A stretch of 64,000 nt of DNA from Squalus acanthias (lineage: Eukaryota): assembly GCA_030390025.1 (NCBI GenBank), contig CM059438.1:33666001-33730000 (forward strand). The letters run 5' to 3'. The notes beneath the pieces were generated by a model that worked only from the letters and a program-made list of their open reading frames with translations, searched no databases and was not told where the DNA came from. Position numbers and translations under genes: made by a program. Shown here piece after piece: positions 1,047 through 63,925 of the stretch; position 1 is the first letter of the stretch, and each line of letters opens with the position of its first letter.

Positions 1047-2984
1047 AAAATGTTTAACTGGGGAAAAGCCAATTTCAGTGGGATGAGAACAGATCTGGTC
1101 CGGGTAAACTGGAATCAAAGATTGGCAGGCAAAACTGTAATGGAACAATGGGCTGCCTTTAAAGAGGAAATAGTTCAGGTACAGTTGAGGTACATTCCCA
1201 CTAGGGGGAAAGGCAGGGCAACTAAAGTCAGGGATCCCTGGATGATGAAAGGGATAGAGAATAAGATGAAGCAGAAAAAGGGGGCATATGACAGATGTCA
1301 GTTTGCAAATACATCTGAAAATCAGGCTATATATAGAAAGGTCAGAGGAGAAGTGAAAAAGAAAATAAGAGGGGCAAAGAGAGGGTATGAGAATAGAATG
1401 GCAGCCAACATAAAAGGTAATCTAAAAGTCTTCTATAGGCATATAAATAGTAAAAGGTTAGTAAGAGGAGGGGTGGGACCAATTAGTAACGTGGAAGCAG
1501 AGGGTATGGCTGAGGTACGAAATGAGTACTTTGCATCTGTCTTCACCAAGGAAGAAGATGCTGCCATAGACACAGTAAATGAGGAGGCAGTGGAAATACT
1601 TGATAGGATAAAAATTGATAAAGAGGAGGTATTAGAAAGGCTGGCTGTACTTAAAGTAGATAAGTCACCAAGAACGGATGGGATGCATCCTAGGATGCTG
1701 AGGGAATTGAGGGAGGAAATCGAGGAGGTACTGGCCTTAATATTCCAATCCTCCATAGATACGGGGGTGGTGCCAAAGGACTGGAGAATTGCAAATGTTG
1801 CACCATTATTCAAAAAAGGGTGTAAAGATAAATCCAGCAACTACAGGCCAATCAGTTTGACCTCGGTAGTGGGGAAGCTTTTAGATACAGTAATCAGGGA
1901 CAAAATTAACAGTCACTTGGACAAGTGTGGATTAATTAAGGAAAGCCAGCACAGATTTGTTAAAGGCAAATCATGTTTAACTAACTTGACAGAGTTCTTT
2001 GATGAGATAACAGAGAGGTTGATGAAACTAATGCAGTTGACGTAGTGTAGATGGATTTCAAAAAGGCATTCGACAAATTACCACATAGTAGGCTTGCCAG
2101 CAAAGTTGAAGCCCATGGAATAAAAGGGACAGTGGCAGCATGGATATGGAATTGGCTAAGTGATAGGAAACAGAGAGTAGTGGTGTACGGTTGTTTTTCG
2201 AACTGGAGGAAGGTGTACGTACAGTGGTGTTCCCCAGGGGTCAGTTCTAGGACCACTGCTTGATATATATTAATGATTTGGACATGGATGTACAGGGCAC
2301 AATTTCAAAATTTGCAGATGACACAAAACTTGGAAGTATAGTGAACAGTGAGGAGGAGAGTGATAGACTTCAGGAAGACATAGACAGGCTGGTGAAATGG
2401 GCGGACACGTGGCAGATGAAATTTAATGCAGAAAAGTGTGAAGTGATACATTTCGGTCGAAAGAATGAGGAGAGGACATATAAACTAAATGGTACAATCC
2501 TGAAGTGGGTGCATGAACAGAGAGGCCTGGGGGTATGTGTGCACAAATCATTGAAGTTGGCAGGGCAGGTTTAGAAAGCAGTTAAAAAGGCTTACGGGAT
2601 CCTGGGCTTCATGAAGAGAGGTATAGAGTACAAAAGTGTGGAAATTATAATGAACCTGTATAAAACACTGGTTCGGCCCCAACTGGAGTACTGTGTCCAA
2701 TTCTGGGCATCACACTTTAGGAAGGATGTGAAGGCCTTAGAGAGGATGCAAAAAAGATTTATGAGAATGATTACAGGAATGAGGGACTTCAGTTATGTTG
2801 ATAGACTGGAGAAGCTGGGGTTGTTCTCCTTGGAGCAAAGAAGATTGGGAGGAGATTTGATAGAGGTGTTCAAAATCATGAGGGCTCTGGACATTGGCAG
2901 AAGGGTCGGGAACCAGAGGACACAGATTTAAGGTGATTGGCAAAAGAACCGAAGGCGACATAAAATAAAAACTTTTTTACGCAA

Positions 2985-3376
2985 TGTGGTAACACAATAC
3001 AGCTTCCTGTGACTCGAACTTTATTGCATCACTTCCTGTGATTAGTCCAGGATAAATACTGGACTGATCAGTTGGATCCTGGAGAGGCATAGAGTAAGAC
3101 CTCTTTTGTATGTAGCACCTTTTTAGTTGATTAAAGCTTACTTTAAGTTCACCACGCGTAAGGCTCATTCTTACGACAATATTGTCGTAAGAATGAGCCT
3201 TACGCGTGGTGAACTTAAAGTAAGCTTTAATCAACTAAAAAGGTGTTACATACAAAAGAGGTCTTACTCTATGCCTCTCCAGGATCCAACTGATCAGTCC
3301 AGTATTTATCCTGGACTAATCACAGGAAGTGATGCAATAAAGTTCGAGTCACAGGAAGCTGTATTGTGTTACCACA
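2985..3376. repeat. 392-bp near-perfect palindrome made of two inverted LTR copies with an ATAT centre
   Basis: 2985-3178 is the reverse complement of 3183-3376 with one mismatch seen; mirrored identical ORFs 2977-3234(-) and 3127-3399(+). Confidence 0.97.
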
Positions 3377-3395
3377 TTCTCCCCCCCCCAAAAGA

Positions 3396-5317
3396 TTAGG
3401 AGGCCGGGATGCTCCCTCCATTTCGTAGCCGCTGGACGAGGGAGAGCCGCACCCGTTTGGGTTCTCGTAGCGGTAGAGGGCCCCTAGCCCGTTTACCCGC
3501 CGCGGGCCGTGGACCAGAGTCCAAGTGATCCAGCCCGCTCTGTGAGGGGTCAGGACGATCCTGACTGTGTACTGGTGCCCGAACGGGTGTCGGGCAGGGC
3601 TGTGGCAGATCCGTTTCCGAGCGTACGGTACGGGGTGGATCGTGGCTGCGCGTGCGAGCCCCGACGGGCTCATAGTCAGTCTGCCCCAGGTCGGCACGCT
3701 GGAGTGAGGTACCAGCCGGCGTCAGATCCAGATCGTGATGAGAGGCACCTGGCGAGCCCAAAAATGTGCCTGATACAATATCATCCCCTGGTGTCCCTCT
3801 ATGTTTCGGCGGGCAGGGAGCCAGATCCCGCAATGACACGGTAGATTGCCGACCGTCAGGATACCGAATATAGGCGTAGGTAGGGTTGACGTCAGTGAGC
3901 TCAACCTCATCTACCAGGGGGTCATTCTTAGACGCCCGGACATATCTTCGGAGTAGCACTGGTCCCGGTGCAGTCAGCCACGACGGGAGAGATACCCCAT
4001 AGGATGAGCGACGCTGAAATCGGAAGAACCGTTCATGAGGCGTCGTATTTGTGGCGGTCGAAAGGAGGGACCGTGTGGAGTGTAATGCGTCTGGAAGTAC
4101 TGCTTCCCATTGCTGGTTGAGTAGGCCCCGAGATCTCAAAGCCAGACGTACCGCATTCCAGATGATAGCGTTAAAACGCTCGACTTGCCCATTCCCGACC
4201 GGATGATAAGGCGTCGTTTTGCTGGCAGCAATACCCCGTTCCGAGAGATAGGCCTTGAGTTCTCCTGACATAAAAGAAGGGCCTCGATCCGAATGAACAT
4301 AGGATGCCATGCCACAGAAAGCAAATACCTGCTCAAGGCAGCTGATAACCGTGGTCGTCAGCATATTGGGGCAGGGAAAGGCAAACGGAAAACGGGAATA
4401 CTCATCGACCATGGTCAATAGATAAGTGTTGCGAGTTGAAGAGGGCAACGGCCCCTTAAAATCGATGCTAAGCCGTTGCATTGGCTGGGTCGCATGTATG
4501 AGTATACCACCCGAGGGCGGAAAAACTGAGGTTTCAATTCCGCACAGACTCTGCAGTCCGAGCACATCTTCTTTACATCCCCGGTAGAGAATGGGAGATT
4601 TCGGGACCGCACGAAGTGTAGCATGCGAGTAACGCCCGGATGACACAACCCATCATGGATGTCTACGAGCGTAGAGGGTGCCATGGCGGAGCAGAATGCT
4701 CGTGTGAGGGTATCCGGAGCCACATTCTCCTTGCCAGGTCGATAGTGGATGGTGTAACCAAAAGACGCCAATTCCAGCCGCCAAAGCTGGATTTTATTAT
4801 TTTTAATTTTGGTCCGTTTTCGATTATCGAGCATGAAGGCGACCGATCGCTGGTCCGTGATTAAGGTAAAGTGCTGGCGAGCTAGGAGATGACTCCACTT
4901 CCGTACTGCCTCTATGATGGCTGTAGCTTCTTTCTCGACTGGAGGATAATGTAGCTCAGCCCCTTGAAAAGTCCTGGACAAAAATGCCACCGGACGACCT
5001 TCCTGATTCAGAATTACCGAGATCGCCACCTCTGAGGCATCACACTCAACAACAAAAGGAAGACTCTCATCGATGGAGTGAAGAGCCGCTTTCTCCAACT
5101 GTTTTTTCAGGAGGTTAAAGGCTGCAACAGCCGCTGTGTCTAGTGGGAATGTGCTGGCCTTCAGTAGAGGTTGGATTCGGTCCGAGAAGTTAGGAATCCA
5201 TTTAGCATAGTATGCAAACAGGCCGAGGGCCTGGCGCAAGGAGGCCGGATTCTTAGGTGGCGGGAGTTCTTGGAGTGGGCGAAGCCTTTCAGGGTCAGGT
5301 TTAATGATGTTTTCCAT
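3396..5317 (-). pseudogene. Truncated Gypsy pol: probable gag start fused to RT C-terminus, RNase H and integrase; one frameshift near 4515
   Basis: 4415-5317: LGLFAYY, VVECDASEVA, EKEATAI, LITDQRS, and the integrase HHCC region (H-x4-H...C-x2-C). 3396-4646: SIDFKGP, VHSDRG, NGQVERFN (D,D35E). No RT YxDD, protease or gag body present. Confidence 0.9.
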
Positions 5318-5395
5318 GATGGGTGATTCCCTGGATCCTTAGTTCCGAGTTCGTCCAAAAAGTTTGAGTGCGAAGTTTTCCAAAGTTGATTAAAT

Positions 5396-5589
5396 TGTCG
5401 TAAGAATGAGCCTTACGCGTGGTGAACTTAAAGTAAGCTTTAATCAACTAAAAAGGTGCTACATACAAAAGAGGTCTTACTCTATGCCTCTCCAGGATCC
5501 AACTGATCAGTCCAGTATTTATCCTGGACTAATCACAGGAAGTGATGTAATAAAGTTCGAGTCACAGGAAGCTGTATTGTGTTACCACA
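5396..5589 (-). repeat. 5' LTR of the Gypsy-derived element
   Basis: Matches 3183-3376 with two differences seen; TG...CA termini; ATTAAA poly(A)-like signal in element sense. Confidence 0.93.
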
Positions 5590-6596
5590 CGCAACGAGTG
5601 GTTAAGATCTGGAATGCACTGCCTGAAAGGGTGGAGGAGGCAGATTCAATCACGGCTTTCAAAAGGGAGTTGGATAAGTATCTGAAGGAAAGCAATTTGC
5701 AGGGGAAACGGCGGGGGAGTGGGACTAGCTGAAGTGTTCCTGCAGAGAGGCGGCACGGGCTCGGTGGGCCGAATGGCCTCCTTCCGTGCTGTAACCATTC
5801 TATGATTCTACAATTCCAGCATGTGGAGGCTCCAATTCTTTAGCTAAGTTGTGACAGCAGGTCTGATAGCATAAGTAAATTTAAAGGACCAACCATATAC
5901 TGTCAACAACTATGGAACAACTCAGTTTCCAGGTCAGCAAAGAACCAGATGCAGAGCGGCGCCATCTGCTCAAGGACACCTGCTGCTATTATGCACCATA
6001 GGGCTGGCACAGTCAAGGACAGCAGTGGCCTCGAGTCTGCCTCCACCTGCTTCCAGGCATGCTACAAAGGGGACTTATAGAGATGGTGCCAAGGAGCGGT
6101 GCAGAGAGCAACTCTCCTCACAACCACTTCATGCAGCGCCCCCGGTACTTCAACAGCTATCAAAAGGCAGCTCAGGTGCTGGGCTGCTCCATCACTTGCC
6201 TATAGATTCATACCTGCACCTGTCCTTTCCCTTCACGTCACTTCTTAATCACCTTCTCCTTCAGCTTTGACAATGGCTGCTAATAGCTTGAGCTATCTTT
6301 TGAGCCTTTCTAAAGGCTTGCAGATATTTAGTCACCCTATTATGATACTTCCTTTTAATTGACTTCATTCCTTTAAATTTCACTTATGTGTAATTTTCTG
6401 CTTCCTCCCCTAGTTTGCTTCCTACATCAGCCCAAATCTACACTTGAATCTGTGAATAACTATACAAATGGGCTGACATAATTGAGATCTGTTAGTACAT
6501 TATCATCATGTCGCAATTAGCATCAGTTCGTAATCACTTAGAACTGACTTACTGCAGTAGATTAAAATTGGCTCGGATGCCTTTACAAACCGCTAT

Positions 6597-53414: not shown

Positions 53415-56400
53415 GATCTAGTGTCAGAAGAAGTTTAATGACCTCACATGAGTGGTCAAAGTGAGTGAATGCATCTTCAAATGCCATATCCCACCATCTG
53501 CACCACTAGTCTCACACACTGCTCAATGCACCACACGCCCATCACTCACCTACCAACAATCTCCAGCAATCACGACTCATACCTCACAATCATAGCTTCA
53601 CCTGAGCCTCACACATTTACCAATGCTGCAAGCCTTATACCCACATCTCACACCTTGCACACAATGTCAGCTATTCAATCATGACAGGCACATCACCCAA
53701 ACACATTGCACCACACTCACTCACACACTTCACCCAAACACATTGCACCACACTCACTGACACACTTCACCCAAACACATTGCACCACACTCACTGACAC
53801 ACTTCACCCAAACACATTGCACCACACTCACTGACACACATCACCCAAACACATTGCACCACACTCACTGACACACACATCACCCAAACACATTGCACCA
53901 CACTCACTGACACACACATCACCCAAACACATTGCACCACACTCACTGACACACTTCACCCAAACACATTGCACCACACTCACTGACACACACTTCACCC
54001 AAACACATTGCACCACACTCACTGACACACACTTCACCCAAACACATTGCACCACACTCACTGACACACACATCACCCAAACACATTGCACCACACTCAC
54101 TGACACACTTCACCCAAACACATTGCACCACACTCACTGACACACACTTCACCCAAACACATTGCACCACACTCACTGACACACACTTCACCCAAACACA
54201 TTGCACCACACTCACTGACACACATCACCCAAACTCATTGCACCACACTCACTGACACACACATCACCCAAACACATTGCACCACACTCACTGACACACA
54301 CTTCACCCAAACACATTGCACCACACTCACTGACACACATCACCCAAACACATTGCACCACACTCACTGACAAACATCACCCAAACACATTGCACCACAC
54401 TCACTGACACACTTCACCCAAACACATTGCACCACACTCACTGACACACACATCACCCAAACACATTGCATCACACTCCCTGACAAACTTCACCCAAACA
54501 CATTGCACCACAATCACTGACACACACTTCAGCCCAGACACATTGCACCACACTCACTGACACACACTTCACCCAAACACATTGCACCACACTCACTGAC
54601 ACACACTTCACCCAAACACATTGCACCACACTCACTGACACACTTCACCCAGACACATTGCACCACACTCACTGACACACTTCACCCAAACACATTGCAC
54701 CACACTCACTGACACACACTTCACCCAAACACATTGCACCACACTCACTGACACACTTCACCCAAACACATTGCACCACACTCACTGACACACATCACCC
54801 AAACACATTGCACCACACTCACTGACACACTTCACCCAAACACATTGCACCACACTCACTGACACACATCACCCAAACACATTGCAGCACACTCACTCAC
54901 ACACACATCACCCAGACACATTGCACCACACTCACTGACACACTACATCCAAGCACATTGCACCACACTCACTCACACACACTTCACCCAGACACATTGC
55001 ACCACACTCACTGACACACTTCACCCAAACACATTGCACCACACTCACTGACACACTTCACCCAAACACATTGCACCACACTCACTGACACACTTCACCC
55101 AAACACATTGCACCACACTCACTGACACACTTCACCCAAACACATTGCACCACACTCACTGACACTCATCACCCAAACACATTGCACCACACTCACTGAC
55201 ACACTTCACCCAAACACATTGCACCACACTCACTGACACACTTCACCCAAACACATTGCACCACACTCACTGACAAACATCACCCAAACACATTGCACCA
55301 CACTCACTCACACACACATCACCCAAACACATTGCACCACACTCACTGACACACATCACCCAGACACATTGCACCACACTCACTGACACACACATCACCC
55401 AGACACATTGCACCACACTCACTGACACACACATCACCCAGACACATTGCACCACACTCACTGACACACACATCACCCAGACACATTGCACCACACTCAC
55501 TGACACACACATCACCCAGACACATTGCACCACACTCACTGACACACACATCACCCAAACACATTGCACCACACTCACTGGCACACACTTCACCCAAACA
55601 CATTGCACCACACTCACTGGCACACATCACCCAAACACATTGCACCACACTCACTGACACACACATCACCCAGACACATTGCACCACACTCACTGACACA
55701 CACTTCACCCAAACACATTGCACCACACTCACTGACACACACTTCACCCAAACACATTGCACCACACTCACTGACACACACATCACCCAAACACATTGCA
55801 CCACACTCACTGACACACACTTCACCCAAACACATTGCACCACACTCACTGACACACTTCACCCAAACACATTGCACCACACTCACTGACACACATCACC
55901 CAAACACATTGCACCACACTCACTGACACACACTTCACCCAAACACATTGCACCACACTCACTGACACACACATCACCCAAACACATTGCACCACACTCA
56001 CTGACACACTTCACCCAAACACATTGCACCACACTCACTGACACACACATCACCCAAACACATTGCACCACACTCACTGACACACATCACCCAAACACAT
56101 TGCACCACACTCACTGACACACACATCACCCAAACACATTGCACCACACTCACTGACACACTTCACCCAAACACATTGCACCACACTCACTGACACACAC
56201 TTCACCCAAACACAGTGCACCACACTCACTGACACACTTCACCCAAACACATTGCACCACACTCACTGACACACTTCACCCAAACACATTGCACCACACT
56301 CACTGACACACATCACCCAAACACATTGCACCACACTCACTGACACACACATCACCCAAACACATTGCACCACACTCACTGACACACACTTCACCCAAAC

Positions 56401-59400
56401 ACATTGCACCACACTCACTGACACACTTCACCCAAACACATTGCACCACACTCACTGACACACATCACCCAAACACATTGCACCACACTCACTGACACAC
56501 TTCACCCAAACACATTGCACCACACTCACTGACACACACATCACCCAAACACATTGCACCACACTCACTGACACACACATCACCCAAACACATTGCACCA
56601 CACTCACTGACACACACTTCACCCAAACACATTGCACCACACTCACTGACACACTTCACCCAAACACATTGCTCCACACTCACTGACACACATCACCCAA
56701 ACACATTGCACCACACTCACTGACACACTTCACCCAAACAAATTGCACCACACTCACTGACACACTTCACCCAAACACAGTGCACCACACTCACTGACAC
56801 ACTTCACCCAAACACATTGCACCACACTCACTGACAAACATCACCCAAACACATTGCACCACACTCACTCACACACACATCACCCAAACACATTGCACCA
56901 CACTCACTGACACACACATCACCCAGACACATTGCACCACACTCACTGACACACACATCACCCAAACACATTGCACCTCACTCACTGGCACACACTTCAC
57001 CCAAACACATTGCACCACACTCACTGGCACACATCACCCAAACACATTGCACCACACTCACTGACACACACATCACCCAGACACATTGCACCACACTCAC
57101 TGACACACACTTCACCCAAACACATTGCACCACACTCACTGACACACACATCACCCAAACACATTGCACCACACTCACTGACACACACTTCACCCAAACA
57201 CATTGCACCACACTCACTGACACATTTCACCCAAACACATTGCACCACACTCACTGACACACATCACCCAAACACATTGCACCACACTCACTGACACACA
57301 CTTCACCCAAACACATTGCACCACACTCACTGACACACACATCACCCAAACACATTGCACCACACTCACTGACACACTTCACCCAAACACATTGCACCAC
57401 ACTCACTGACACACACATCACCCAAACACATTGCACCACACTCACTGACACACATCACCCAAACACATTGCACCACACTCACTGACACACACATCACCCA
57501 AACACATTGCACCACACTCACTGACACACTTCACCCAAACACATTGCACCACACTCACTGACACACACTTCACCCAAACACATTGCACCACACTCACTGA
57601 CACACTTCACCCAAACACATTGCACCACACTCACTGACACACTTCACCCAAACACATTGCACCACACTCACTGACACACATCACCCAAACACATTGCACC
57701 ACACTCACTGACACACACATCACCCAAACACATTGCACCACACTCACTGACACACACTTCACCCAAACACATTGCACCACACTCACTGACACACTTCACC
57801 CAAACACATTGCACCACTGACTGACACACATCACCCAAACACATTGCACCACACTCACTGACACACTTCACCCAAACACATTGCACCACACTCACTGACA
57901 CACATCACCCAAACACATTGCACCACACTCACTGACACACACATCACCCAAACACATTGCACCACACTCACTGGCACACACTTCACCCAAACACATTGCA
58001 CCACACTCACTGGCACACATCACCCAAACACATTGCACCACACTCACTGACACACACATCACCCAGACACATTGCACCACACTCACTGACACACACTTCA
58101 CCCAAACACATTGCACCACACTCACTGACACACACTTCACCCAAACACATTGCACCACACTCACTGACACACACATCACCCAAACACATTGCACCACACT
58201 CACTGACACACACTTCACCCAAACACATTGCACCACACTCACTGACACACTTCACCCAAACACATTGCACCACACTCACTGACACACATCACCCAAACAC
58301 ATTGCACCACACTCACTGACACACACTTCACCCAAACACATTGCACCACACTCACTGACACACACATCACCCAAACACATTGCACCACACTCACTGACAC
58401 ACATCACCCAAACACATTGCACCACACTCACTGACACACACATCACCCAAACACATTGCTCCACACTCACTGACACACATCACCCAAACACATTGCACCA
58501 CACTCACTGACACACACATCACCCAAACACATTGCACCACACTCACTGACACACTTCACCCAAACACATTGCACCACACTCACTGACACACACTTCACCC
58601 AAACACAGTGCACCACACTCACTGACACACTTCACCCAAACACATTGCACCACACTCACTGACACACTTCACCCAAACACATTGCACCACACTCACTGAC
58701 ACACATCACCCAAACACATTGCACCACACTCACTGACACACACATCACCCAAACACATTGCACCACACTCACTGACACACATCACCCAAACACATTGCAC
58801 CACACTCACTGACACACACATCACCCAAACACATTGCACCACACTCACTGACACACTTCACCCAAACACATTGCACCAAACTCACTGACACACATCACCC
58901 AAACACATTGCACCACACTCACTGACACACACATCACCCAAACACATTGCACCACACTCACTGGCACACACTTCACCCAAACACATTGCACCACACTCAC
59001 TGGCACACATCACCCAAACACATTGCACCACACTCACTGACACACACATCACCCAGACACATTGCACCACACTCACTGACACACACTTCACCCAAACACA
59101 TTGCACCACACTCACTGACACACACTTCACCCAAACACATTGCACCACACTCACTGACACACACATCACCCAAACACATTGCACCACACTCACTGACACA
59201 CTTCACCCAAACACATTGCACCACACTCACTGACAAACTTCACCCAAACACATTGCACCACACTCACTGACACACATCACCCAAACACATTGCACCACAC
59301 TCACTGACACACACATCACCCAAACACATTGCACCACACTCACTGACACACATCACCCAAACACATTGCACCACACTCACTGACACACTTCACCCAAACA

Positions 59401-59778
59401 CATTGCACCACTGACTGACACACATCACCCAAACACATTGCACCACACTCACTGACACACTTCACCCAAACACATTGCACCACACTCACTGACACACATC
59501 ACCCAAACACATTGCACCACACTCACTGACACACACATCACCCAAACACATTGCACCACACTCACTGACACACATCACCCAAACACATTGCACCACACTC
59601 ACTGACACACACATCACCCAAACACATTGCACCACACTCACTGACACACATCACCCAGACACATTGCACCACACTCACTGACACACTACATCCAAACACA
59701 TTGCACCACACTCACTGACACACTACATTCAAACACATTGCACCACACTCACTCACACACACTTCACCCAGACACATT

Positions 59779-61299
59779 GGGCCGAAAATTGATCCCGGGA
59801 CGCGAGAGTACGCACTGCGTACTCTCGCGTATTCCCACTCCAATTGCCGGTTTTCTGCATGCCCTCCGCATGCGCTGAAAACCGGCAATTGCTCTTCTGA
59901 AAAGGGGGCGGGTCCTCGGTGCATCGCGTGCGCGCTACAGGCTGCGCGCACGCTGTGCACTTCATGCTTTGGACGCGCAGGTAAGTACTGAAGATTTTGG
60001 AAATGTAAAAAGGAGGAGTAAGACCCGCTTTTAAGAAGGTAAGTAGTGAATTAAGTATTTTTTTGAATTATTTTTTTACAGGTATATCTTTTTTAGAGAC
60101 TTTAAAGACAGGTAAGTTTATTTTTATAACTTTTTAAAAGATTTTAAATTTTTTCAAAAATTTAATTTTTTATTTAAAATGGTTAATTTAATTAACTATA
60201 CTTATTTTATTAATGTGATGGGTTTTTTTTTAAAATTTAATTGAGGTTTAGCTGTTATTTTGGGGGGGTGTAAGATTCATAGGGGGAAAAATTCAGCTGC
60301 TTGCGCCTCCCGTTAGCGCCTTAAGAGTGCGCTAATGGGGCGTAAAGCAGCTAACGCCCGGGCGCAGCGCCGCCCACGCCTCCCGTAAAATTCAGCGGGA
60401 GGTTAGCGGCGGCACCAGCTGGTAGCGCCCTGTGGCGCTGCGCCGCCGGCGATGACGTCATCGCCGTGCGCAGCACCCCGCTCGCGCTCCAGCCGCGATC
60501 TTCAGTCGCGCCCCCTGATTTACCGCCAGACGCTATGTCCGACGGGTTCAGGGAGGCGTACGTGCGGCCGGGGCGGCGATATTTAAAGGGGAGGTGGCAG
60601 GCGGCCATTTTTGTTGCTGGCCGCCTGCCAGCACCTGCCCCCGTTGCTGTCCCCGGCCCCCGTGAAGCACCCCCACCGTGAAGTGCCGGCTGCGCTCCAA
60701 GAGCCCGGCACTTCTCTTGAGTGCCGGGCTCTTTTGCCGGCACTCCCGATCCCTGGGGGCCCAGCTGGGCCCCGGTTCGCGCTGCGCAGGGTCCCTCCCC
60801 TTTAAGAAGGGGAGGAAGGCCTGCAATACCGCGGCGCGACGTGCCACAGCGCCTGGCGCTGCGGCACGTAGCGCCAGGATATTCCCTCGCAGCGCCCCAA
60901 GAGGGATGCGGGGTGCTTCCAGTGGCGCCCCGCTTCCCTCTTGGGGCGCAACCACTGAAGTTCCGGCGCGGGGCCGCTAATTTTTTCGGGGCGCTAAAAG
61001 TAGCGCCCCGGCGAAGTTAGCGCCCCAAATGGGGCGCGACTCAATTTTTAGCCCATAGATTTCGCAGGGTGCTGTGAAACTTATGAATGGAAGATGGTGT
61101 GCTGCCATTGGCTCTAACTGAGTCACGTGATCCCACAGCTCGCACGAATTCACTACGCCGCTGGGATACGCAAGCACTGCCCAGCTGATCTCTAGAACAT
61201 GAAGTTCGTGCGAGCTGGATCTGAAAAAGCACAAGCGAGGTGAGAGATCGCGGGGAAGCCTTACCCCCGCGGGAACAGAGCGAGATCAATTTCTGGGCC
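59779..61299. mobile_element. GGCCC-family Harbinger-like element inserted in the satellite, with a nested MITE
   Basis: TIRs GGGCCGAAAATT / AATTTCTGGGCC; TSD ATT; reverse complement of 19865-20609. Confidence 0.9.
60282..61054. mobile_element. Harbinger-like MITE (773 bp) nested in the GGCCC element
   Basis: TIRs GGGGGAAAAATT / AATTTTTAGCCC; TSD ATA. Confidence 0.9.
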
Positions 61300-63925
61300 A
61301 TTGCACCACACTCACTGACACACTTCACCGAGACACATTGCACCACACTCACTGACACACACTTCACCCAAACACAGTGCACCACACTCACTGACACACT
61401 TCACCCAAACACTTTGCACCACACTCACTGACACACTTCACCCAAACACATTGCACCACACTCACTGACACACACATCACCCAAACACATTGCACCACAC
61501 TCACTGACACACATCACCCAAACACATTGCACCACGATCACTGACACACTACATCCAAACACATTGCACCACACTCACTCACACACACTTCACCCAGAAA
61601 CATTGCACCACACTCACTGACACACTTCACCCAGACACATTGCATCACACTCACTGACACACATCACCCAAACACATTGCACCACACTCACTGACACACT
61701 TCACCCAAATACATTGCACCACACTCACTGACACACTTCACCCAAACACATTGCACCACACTCACTGACACACATCACCCAAACACATTGCACCACACTC
61801 ACTCACACACTTCACCCAAACACATTGCACCACACTCACTCACACACATCACCCAAACACATTGCACCACACTCACTAACACACACATCACCCAAACACA
61901 TTGCACCACACTCACTGACACACATCACCCAAACACATTGCACCACACTCACTGACACACATCACCCAAACACATTGCACCACACTCACTGACACACATC
62001 ACCCAAACACATTGCACCACACTCACTAACACACACATCACCCAAACACATTGCACCACACTCACTGACACACATCACCCAAACACATTGCACCACACTC
62101 ACTGACACACATCACCCAAACACATTGCACCACACTCACTGACACACATCACCCAAACACATTGCACCACACTCACTAACACACACATCACCCAAACACA
62201 TTGCACCACACTCACTGACACACATCACCCAAACACATTGCACCACACTCACTGACACACACATCACCCAAACACATTGCACCACACTCACTGACACACA
62301 CATCACCCAAACATATTGCACCACACTCACTGACACACACTTCACCCAAACACATTGCACCACACTCACTGACACACATCACCTAAACACATTGCACCAC
62401 ACTCACTGACACACATCACCCAAACACATTGCACCACACTCACTGACACACACATCACCCAGACACATTGCACCACACTCACTGACACACACTTCACCCA
62501 AACACATTGCACCACACTCACTGACACACACTTCACCCAAACACATTGCACCACACTCACTGACACACACATCACCCAAACACATTGCACCACACTCACT
62601 GACACACACTTCACCCAAACACATTGCACCACACTCACTGACACACACTTCACCCAAACACATTGCACCACACTCACTGACACACACTTCACCCAAACAC
62701 ATTGCACCACACTCACTGACACACACTTCACCCAAACACATTGCACCACTGACTGACACACACATCACGCAAACACATTGCACCACACTCACTGACACAC
62801 TTCCGTTTCTCTTGCAAGCCAATGTGGCTCACAACTGGCATGAGCAGCAACAGACAGGCTGGGGCAAAGCACGGCTGCAGAACATGACCCAGATGGAGGA
62901 GACAGTGCTGCAGATAATTGGAGAGGCCGTCACCGAAGCTGTGGAGAGTGGTGAGGTTGAAAGCATTGATGATGATGGTACGCTCAAACCTAATCCTTCT
63001 TCTCACATCCCTCTTACCTCTCATGGCACAATCTCTTCTCACTTACAACCTGCTGATGGTGTAAGCATGCACATCTTGCTTTCCCCCCTCCCCTCACCAC
63101 AACCCAACCCTTGTGCCTTTCTCCTTTCAGATACCCAAGAACTGCCTGCAGCTCAGCCAGTGTGGGAAGAACTAGAGGAGAGAGTGAAGGAGAAGAAGAG
63201 GCACCATCACTCAATCTGACACTCCCAGGCACCAACTCAGAAAATGGCACTATGCGAACTTTAGAGGGTAGTATAGAGGCGGGATCTGCACGTGGTGAGT
63301 CACTGGGCACGAGTGGGCTACGGCCAAGCCGGGGGGAAAGGGTAGCCCAGGTGCCAGCTCCTCGGAGGGCGAGTTCGCACACGAGTTCTGCTGCACAGAA
63401 ATCAGATGAGGACTTCGATGGGGCGGCCTTCAGAAGAAAGGTGATGAGCATGCACACAGAACTGCTTGGTGCAATGGCAGGCCTGCCAGAGAGCCTCTTG
63501 TCACTGCTAACGAGCATGGAGGAGTCCGGCTCCAATACTGCACGGGGCTTTGTGTGGAGCTTGGAGCCCATGATTTCCAGGATGGAAGTGATGGGGCAGC
63601 TCCATTAGAGAACTTGTGGATCCAACCTTGATCCTGGGTGTGATGGGCGATGTCGCAGCTTCCATTGCAGCACAAGTGGAAGCGACCCAACGTCTGAGTG
63701 CTGCAGTGGAAGCTCAGACTTCCGCCATGTAGGTTCAGCTTGCTGCCACGCAAGCTCAGACTGCTGCCATCATGGCTGAGTTTACGAATGTGGAAAGGGG
63801 ATTGCAGGGTCTCACAGCAGTCCAGCAATCTGTCCTCCAACAGATGGGTAAGAATACTGAGGCGCCGCCCCAAGGGAGTGGCAGTTGTTCCGTGGAGCAA
63901 GAACCTGCTGTCCTCTCTCAGGATT

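Follow-up and report, generated by a model that had tools for sequence, protein, structure and literature searches.

How a retrotransposon with no tRNA-type binding site behind its 5′ LTR could begin reverse transcription is the question raised by a locus in the genome of Squalus acanthias. The window, by which we mean the whole stretch of 64,000 nucleotides that was analysed (assembly GCA_030390025.1, contig CM059438.1, positions 33,666,001 to 33,730,000), carries on its minus strand a copy with an internal deletion of a Ty3/gypsy LTR retrotransposon, recognised by its TG...CA LTRs, target-site duplication and polypurine tract. An in-frame deletion of 2,034 nt, situated at an 11-of-12-base microhomology (5298–5309), has taken most of gag, protease (PR) and reverse transcriptase (RT), and the integrase is divided between two frames. 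The element has three LTRs that differ from one another by 1–2 bases, and TATA is absent from the window LTR. Window positions 53682–59779 and 61299–62800 are taken up by large satellite arrays whose repeat unit is 37–39 nt long. The features of the element, in window coordinates, are as follows.

2980..2984, plus strand: left target-site duplication, CGCAA
2985..3178, plus strand: extra inverted LTR, with 1 difference from each other LTR
3179..3182: ATAT, where two LTRs meet by their CA ends (CA-AT/AT-TG); a single genomic site
3183..3376, minus strand: 3′ LTR
3377..3389, minus strand: polypurine tract
5395-3377, minus strand: internal part of the element
3396..4652, minus strand: integrase core and C-terminal tail, in a different frame; no chromodomain match
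4415..5317, minus strand: open reading frame that continues in frame from the first Gag codons into the final part of RT, followed by RNase H and the zinc finger of integrase
about 5298-5309, minus strand: deletion junction of that reading frame
5384..5394, minus strand: predicted primer-binding position TTTAATCAACT; no TGG
5395, minus strand: one-base spacer A at the boundary of LTR and primer site; the offset is 1 in every long duplex
5396..5589, minus strand: 5′ LTR, 194 bp, TG...CA, with 2 differences from the 3′ LTR
5399..5417, minus strand: hairpin CGTAAG/CTTACG, close to the LTR end and specific to the family; absent from the consensus fold
5426..5438, minus strand: small hairpin predicted to stack on the arm; alone not significant (P 0.064)
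5439..5444, minus strand: ATTAAA, 3′ end of the arm; sole hexamer of poly(A) type in the LTR, with a putative role as such
5439..5449, minus strand: LTR arm AGTTGATTAAA, predicted self-primer; exact complement of 5384-5394, covarying in relatives
5590..5594, plus strand: right target-site duplication, CGCAA; the insertion lies inside an older LINE-like repeat

Read along the minus strand, the sequence runs ...CTTACGACA, then A, then TTTAATCAACT. An earlier note on this DNA had reported that no TGG-type primer-binding site follows the 5′ LTR and that the complement of a segment inside the LTR begins one nucleotide beyond it, and both observations are exact: no TGG occurs in the first 8 bases past the LTR, and TTTAATCAACT (5394–5384), one base past the terminal CA, is exactly complementary to AGTTGATTAAA (5449–5439), an arm lying 44 bases upstream of the site. 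When the final 100 bases of the LTR were shuffled 300 times by dinucleotides, no shuffle reached a match of 11 bp (mean 4.3, maximum 9). The predicted fold forms the 11-bp helix, enclosing two small hairpins, with a folding energy no more than modestly out of the ordinary (z −2.2; 7 of 200 shuffles equally good). The last six bases of the arm, ATTAAA, are the only AATAAA or ATTAAA hexamer in the window LTR. The CGTAAG/CTTACG hairpin that the note placed inside the pair is present (5417–5412 with 5404–5399) and pairs in the predicted fold, but it is not conserved in relatives; over 14 families the stems of the inner hairpins sum to 59 versus 51 by chance, and conserved inner hairpins were rejected, loop energies averaging z −0.8 and being negative in 10 of the 14 families.

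Near-identical copies of the element are abundant in the genome (1,496 candidates), and its LTR–leader joint has 525 exact-flank matches; the Gypsy family to which it belongs is very young and still expanding. Among the first 100 listed of the 525 matches, 97 retain the primer site TTTAATCAACT unchanged. We examined 20 family copies picked by their likeness to the window stretch, most of which are about 4.4 kb long; a single uninterrupted reading frame of 1,316–1,325 codons is present in 5 of the 16 copies that were translated, and in a full-length copy the domains follow in the order protease, RT, RNase H and integrase (Gag-PR-RT-RH-IN in a single frame). Coupled changes within the family number 0 of 8, all copies with an altered primer site keeping an unaltered arm. 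As expected, this fits mutations arising after insertion, and the support that the family itself lends to the pairing is nil. Six of the 20 copies (L023, L024, L026, L027, L037 and L039) carry a duplication of the purine tract and the first 37–40 LTR bases before the 3′ LTR, an arrangement that suggests a second plus-strand start or a slip of the template.

Evidence on the pairing comes instead from related families. A protein search yielded 1,303 homologues among 8,000 scored; the named sources of the 120 listed comprise nematode, shrimp, copepod, anemone, tunicate, mussel and catshark, corals are present among the homologue cluster members, and no relatives were found in the viral contigs searched. 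Scanning metagenome contigs with a profile produced 80 loci, 55 of them without a Gag start or 45 upstream bases; the remaining 25 consisted of 4 near-copies of scored families, 4 loci without a recognisable LTR end (L052, L054, L064 and L112) and 17 that were scored. Together with two further families of this genome and the window element, these provide 20 LTR–leader junctions, across which RT–RNase H identity to the window family is 50–81%. In a tree whose outgroups, none of them a named reference, are four controls and two other Gypsy sequences, 20 homologues, including 16 with scored junctions, are set apart together by a fully supported long branch.

An unbroken Watson–Crick duplex of 11–16 bp between a family's own LTR and its own leader is present in 15 of the 20 junctions. 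These long duplexes always begin one base past CA and close loops of 30–65 nt, and none of the 20 junctions has TGG in the first 8 bases past the LTR. When LTR and leader were taken from different families, pairings of at least 11 bp arose in 21 of 380 combinations, almost all of them within five families that have a common core, and the self-pairing total was not matched by any of 200,000 permutations. Other Gypsy families in the genome served as controls, and their seven loci carry TGG sites and only 3–4 bp of self-pairing. The five shorter cases have identifiable causes: one G–U each in L062 and L099, one mismatch in L067, and an altered 5′ LTR in L091 and L117, the match being restored with the 3′ LTR in L091 and each of the two LTRs bearing a different mismatch in L117. 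The 11-nt pairing described for the window element stands for its own family but is not constant over the clade, in which most relatives pair 2–5 bases further upstream of a conserved AG; the start is therefore not one fixed base, and primer length probably varies among relatives. The arm has AATAAA or ATTAAA as its last six bases in 13 of the 20 junctions.

Two more families in this genome (L142–L159), at about 81% RT–RNase H identity and with otherwise dissimilar LTRs, retain an 11-base core in common with the window element and pair over 12–13 bp. In L069 (170–250), the LTR end and primer site stand twice in tandem.

Covariation in related families, which the earlier note had named as a check on the pairing, bears it out. 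In a MAFFT alignment of 17 junctions (A2; L049, L062 and L099 were scored for pairing and are not in A2), 90% of cells pair and 13 of the 16 aligned pairs show two-sided changes, and none of 500 shuffles equals the observed pairing, slid registers giving 24–49%, counts that are not probabilities because the families are related. From the same 17 junctions RNAalifold, unprompted, recovers 13 core pairs as a consensus fold of one helix only, with 38 two-sided changes, 0 one-sided changes to G–U and 9 broken cells of 221, although the relatedness of the families means that these covariation counts overstate independence. The families contribute about 15 distinct arm sequences. The clearest example is that of L045 and L050, which differ at 15 positions in 1,500 gag bases (1%) and at five where their 5′ LTRs and leaders align, two of the five being both partners of one pair; the arm change is found in both LTRs. 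Ordinary RNA helices usually tolerate G–U pairs, and their absence here suggests that the arm is the template from which the site is made, an outcome to be expected of an arm that acts as primer.

We consider it likely that the window element primes its own reverse transcription in the manner of Tf1, the duplex with the LTR arm taking the place of a tRNA, as the earlier note had proposed; in favour of this reading are the strict covariation in relatives and the exclusion, from the sequence, of priming by a tRNA 3′-CCA end, no TGG standing past the LTR. The transcript would begin at 5449 or a few bases before it, and its 5′ end would fold over a 44-nt loop onto the primer site. Eight of 16 listed public runs were examined, all of them contigs; they showed neither a transcript start or end nor a poly(A) joint, a result that counts neither for nor against this start. 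A nuclease cut after ...UUAAA, which in Tf1 is made by the RNase H of the element, would free a 3′-OH, from which RT would copy the spacer A and then U5 and R; even with a start upstream of 5449, one cut past the arm would free a paired 3′ end. Plus-strand synthesis would then copy the primer back into the site, and such copying in each cycle would explain perfect pairing without G–U. An RNase H domain is present in both the window element and the full-length copy, and the conserved AG at the start of the arm often stands in an initiator-like context, judged against the TCAKTY consensus given in PMC3601003.

Because the arm ends in a poly(A) hexamer, the same fold would also hide the poly(A) signal of the 5′ LTR, possibly as a second use. 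It might also be its only use, the duplex being a regulatory hairpin and priming falling to some other primer. The exact coincidence of the arm's end with AATAAA or ATTAAA in those 13 of 20 junctions, and with the sole such hexamer of the window LTR, speaks for masking, as does the presence of a pairing partner behind the 5′ LTR only, which leaves the 3′ poly(A) signal free. Yet L044, L047 and L117 keep the duplex with a canonical hexamer in the loop, outside it; a masking helix requires neither a fixed one-base register nor the avoidance of G–U; and a masking hairpin supplies no primer where the TGG site is absent. We regard this explanation as unlikely.

Very unlikely, in our judgement, is priming by a 5′ tRNA fragment that ends in the D-arm of tRNA-Ile(AAT), the LTR arm being a look-alike or a relic. 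Its origin is a search of the site against host tRNAs, 11 types, some of them degenerate, from an Rfam search and follow-up of this genome. The earlier note had named a match of the site to a host tRNA or tRNA fragment as a finding that would refute self-priming; 3′ ends give none, as no TGG is present, but an internal segment, the D-loop of tRNA-Ile(AAT), pairs with it over 11 nt (9 Watson–Crick and 2 G–U) in the same one-base register. Against the 11 types, 25 of 2,000 shuffled sites pair as well, and 7 of the 20 junctions reach 11–13 nt with tRNA-Ile(AAT), two more reaching 12 nt with a degenerate Ile-like gene. With Watson–Crick pairs only, however, the window site pairs with any of the 11 types over at most 6 bp, and 11 of the 20 junctions stay below 11 nt with every tested tRNA, even though several form 13–16 perfect pairs to the LTR of their own element. 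The window site follows the LTR arm and not the tRNA at the two wobble positions, where a site copied from a tRNA primer should have come to carry the tRNA's letters, and the match was noticed after the fact. The arm with its next two bases resembles the host tRNA-Ile(AAT) D-loop (for example, L231 1454–1527) with two G-to-A differences; the resemblance may be fortuitous, or it may be left over from a tRNA fragment that formerly served as primer.

That the complementarity is chance or a functionless ancestral inverted repeat, to which A/T-rich sequence and a fold z-score of only −2.2 lend some colour, is scarcely credible beside 0 of 300 shuffles at 11 bp, self-pairing in 15 of 20 junctions against 21 of 380 across families, and a pairing kept with about 15 arm sequences over families 50–81% identical in RT–RNase H.

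Tf1-like self-priming would place the window element beside a small set of described systems. Tf1 of S. pombe primes with its own first 11 bases after an RNase H cut (PMC7175516), and Tj1 of S. japonicus is proposed to do likewise (PMC4600332). The Tf1/sushi group consists of chromoviruses with a three-duplex ‘pretzel’, in which both sequences adjacent to the site are paired to the LTR (PMC10085805). In Tf1/Tf2, Tj1 and Tf1/sushi, as in the window element, there is no tRNA site and about 11 nt past the 5′ LTR pair with an LTR segment, and Tf1/sushi elements also have the Ty3/gypsy domain order Gag-PR-RT-RH-IN. Self-priming has further been predicted from complementarity of LTR and site for the plant Copia elements TAR, Houba and Osr-1 and for moss Tcn1 (PMC6317226); the geometry in the window is that by which PMC6317226 recognises self-primers, and it agrees with the Tf1 mechanism of PMC7175516. 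Self-priming is thus already proposed outside Tf1/sushi, for plant TAR (PMC6317226), but TAR is a Copia element and Tcn1 a chromovirus, both from plants, whereas the window element belongs to an animal Gypsy lineage. Fungal GalEa Copia elements, which have a conserved hairpin site, Dictyostelium Skipper and bivalve TRIMs likewise have no TGG (PMC5445492, PMC5006619 and PMC6934838); in the portions of these papers available, no LTR complement to the site is reported or the hairpin is wholly internal, whereas the partner in the window lies in the LTR.

The differences from Tf1/sushi are several. The earlier note saw no chromodomain, and none was found: Chromo gave no match at E 0.1 in the full reading frame or at E 0.001 in the integrase frame of the window, and PF00385, with 16 matches in this genome, is listed for 0 of the 120 homologues among those shown. 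The loop is short (30–65 nt), the arm overlaps the poly(A) hexamer and the duplex is of 11–16 bp. The leader-to-LTR duplex of the Tf1 pretzel, as PMC10085805 defines it, is absent from the window lineage, where the equivalent is 2–5 bp in 13 of 14 families and 8 in one. The RT motif is mostly YLDN; at this catalytic position YLDN replaces YLDD in most members of the clade, some branches having YLDD, and the family is expanding. Judged from its predicted RNA structure and translated domains, the window lineage bears the functional signature of Tf1 and lacks both chromodomain and pretzel, two features of Tf1/sushi membership.

RT–RNase H of the window family scores 168 bits against Ty3, compared with 181 for a TGG-primed control and 243 for another control, which gives no sign of special kinship and may reflect a long branch. 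A search of this genome with PF16297 gave no match, and the ESM Atlas returned generic Gag clusters. Cigr-1, CsRN1, Mag and MolGy1-16 are likewise Gypsy elements without a chromodomain, from invertebrates, a likeness in which the clades are set by name and not by sequence comparison. Cigr-1 may be the clade of the window element, a guess from size and hosts only; no published clade name for the lineage was found in papers, supplements or protein names.

The window copy also has a third LTR, joined inverted to the 3′ LTR through CA-AT/AT-TG (window 2985–3376), a joint with one occurrence in the genome. A single 5-bp duplication, CGCAA, surrounds the element together with its extra LTR, which means that a U3 end was integrated on either side. 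The joint retains two bases beyond CA on either side; as one event, it suggests a cDNA end two bases beyond the LTR, as expected with synthesis from the spacer, and is consistent with a cDNA end composed of the spacer and one primer base, whatever the primer's identity. The inverted LTR may have arisen by tail-to-tail joining of two cDNA ends or when the polymerase jumped between templates, or it may be an artefact of assembly, though its two arms differ by one base; the idea that it is a regular by-product of self-priming was dropped, given its one occurrence. An Rfam scan of 2900–5700 returned nothing beyond a miRNA match below threshold, which falls on the palindromic joint.

A broader reading, which we offer tentatively, is that self-priming arose independently in a widespread and expanding lineage of animal Gypsy elements that are not chromoviruses. 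One segment of 11–16 nt would act at once as primer, as poly(A) signal and as the start of the transcript, the site would be rewritten from the primer in each cycle, and the segment's ancestor may have been a tRNA D-loop fragment with a primer role. To our knowledge, self-priming has been shown experimentally for Tf1 only and is treated as a mark of Tf1/sushi chromoviruses. In full-text literature, mostly non-subscription, we found no account of an animal Gypsy clade that lacks a chromodomain and primes itself; Repbase-based genome papers may already name a self-primed animal Gypsy group, so that a prior description is quite possible. The available portions of PMC2836005, PMC12440569, PMC6238403, PMC13524379 and PMC12471100 likewise contain none.

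With a leader of about 70 nt and natural compensatory variants, the mechanism is easily testable in vitro. Annotation pipelines that demand a tRNA site would miss or mis-score such elements. If the mechanism is true, the elements would be freed from the supply of tRNA and from silencing by 3′ tRNA fragments at the primer site; and if it holds in a broad chromodomain-less animal lineage, escape from the host tRNA would have arisen repeatedly or be older than thought.
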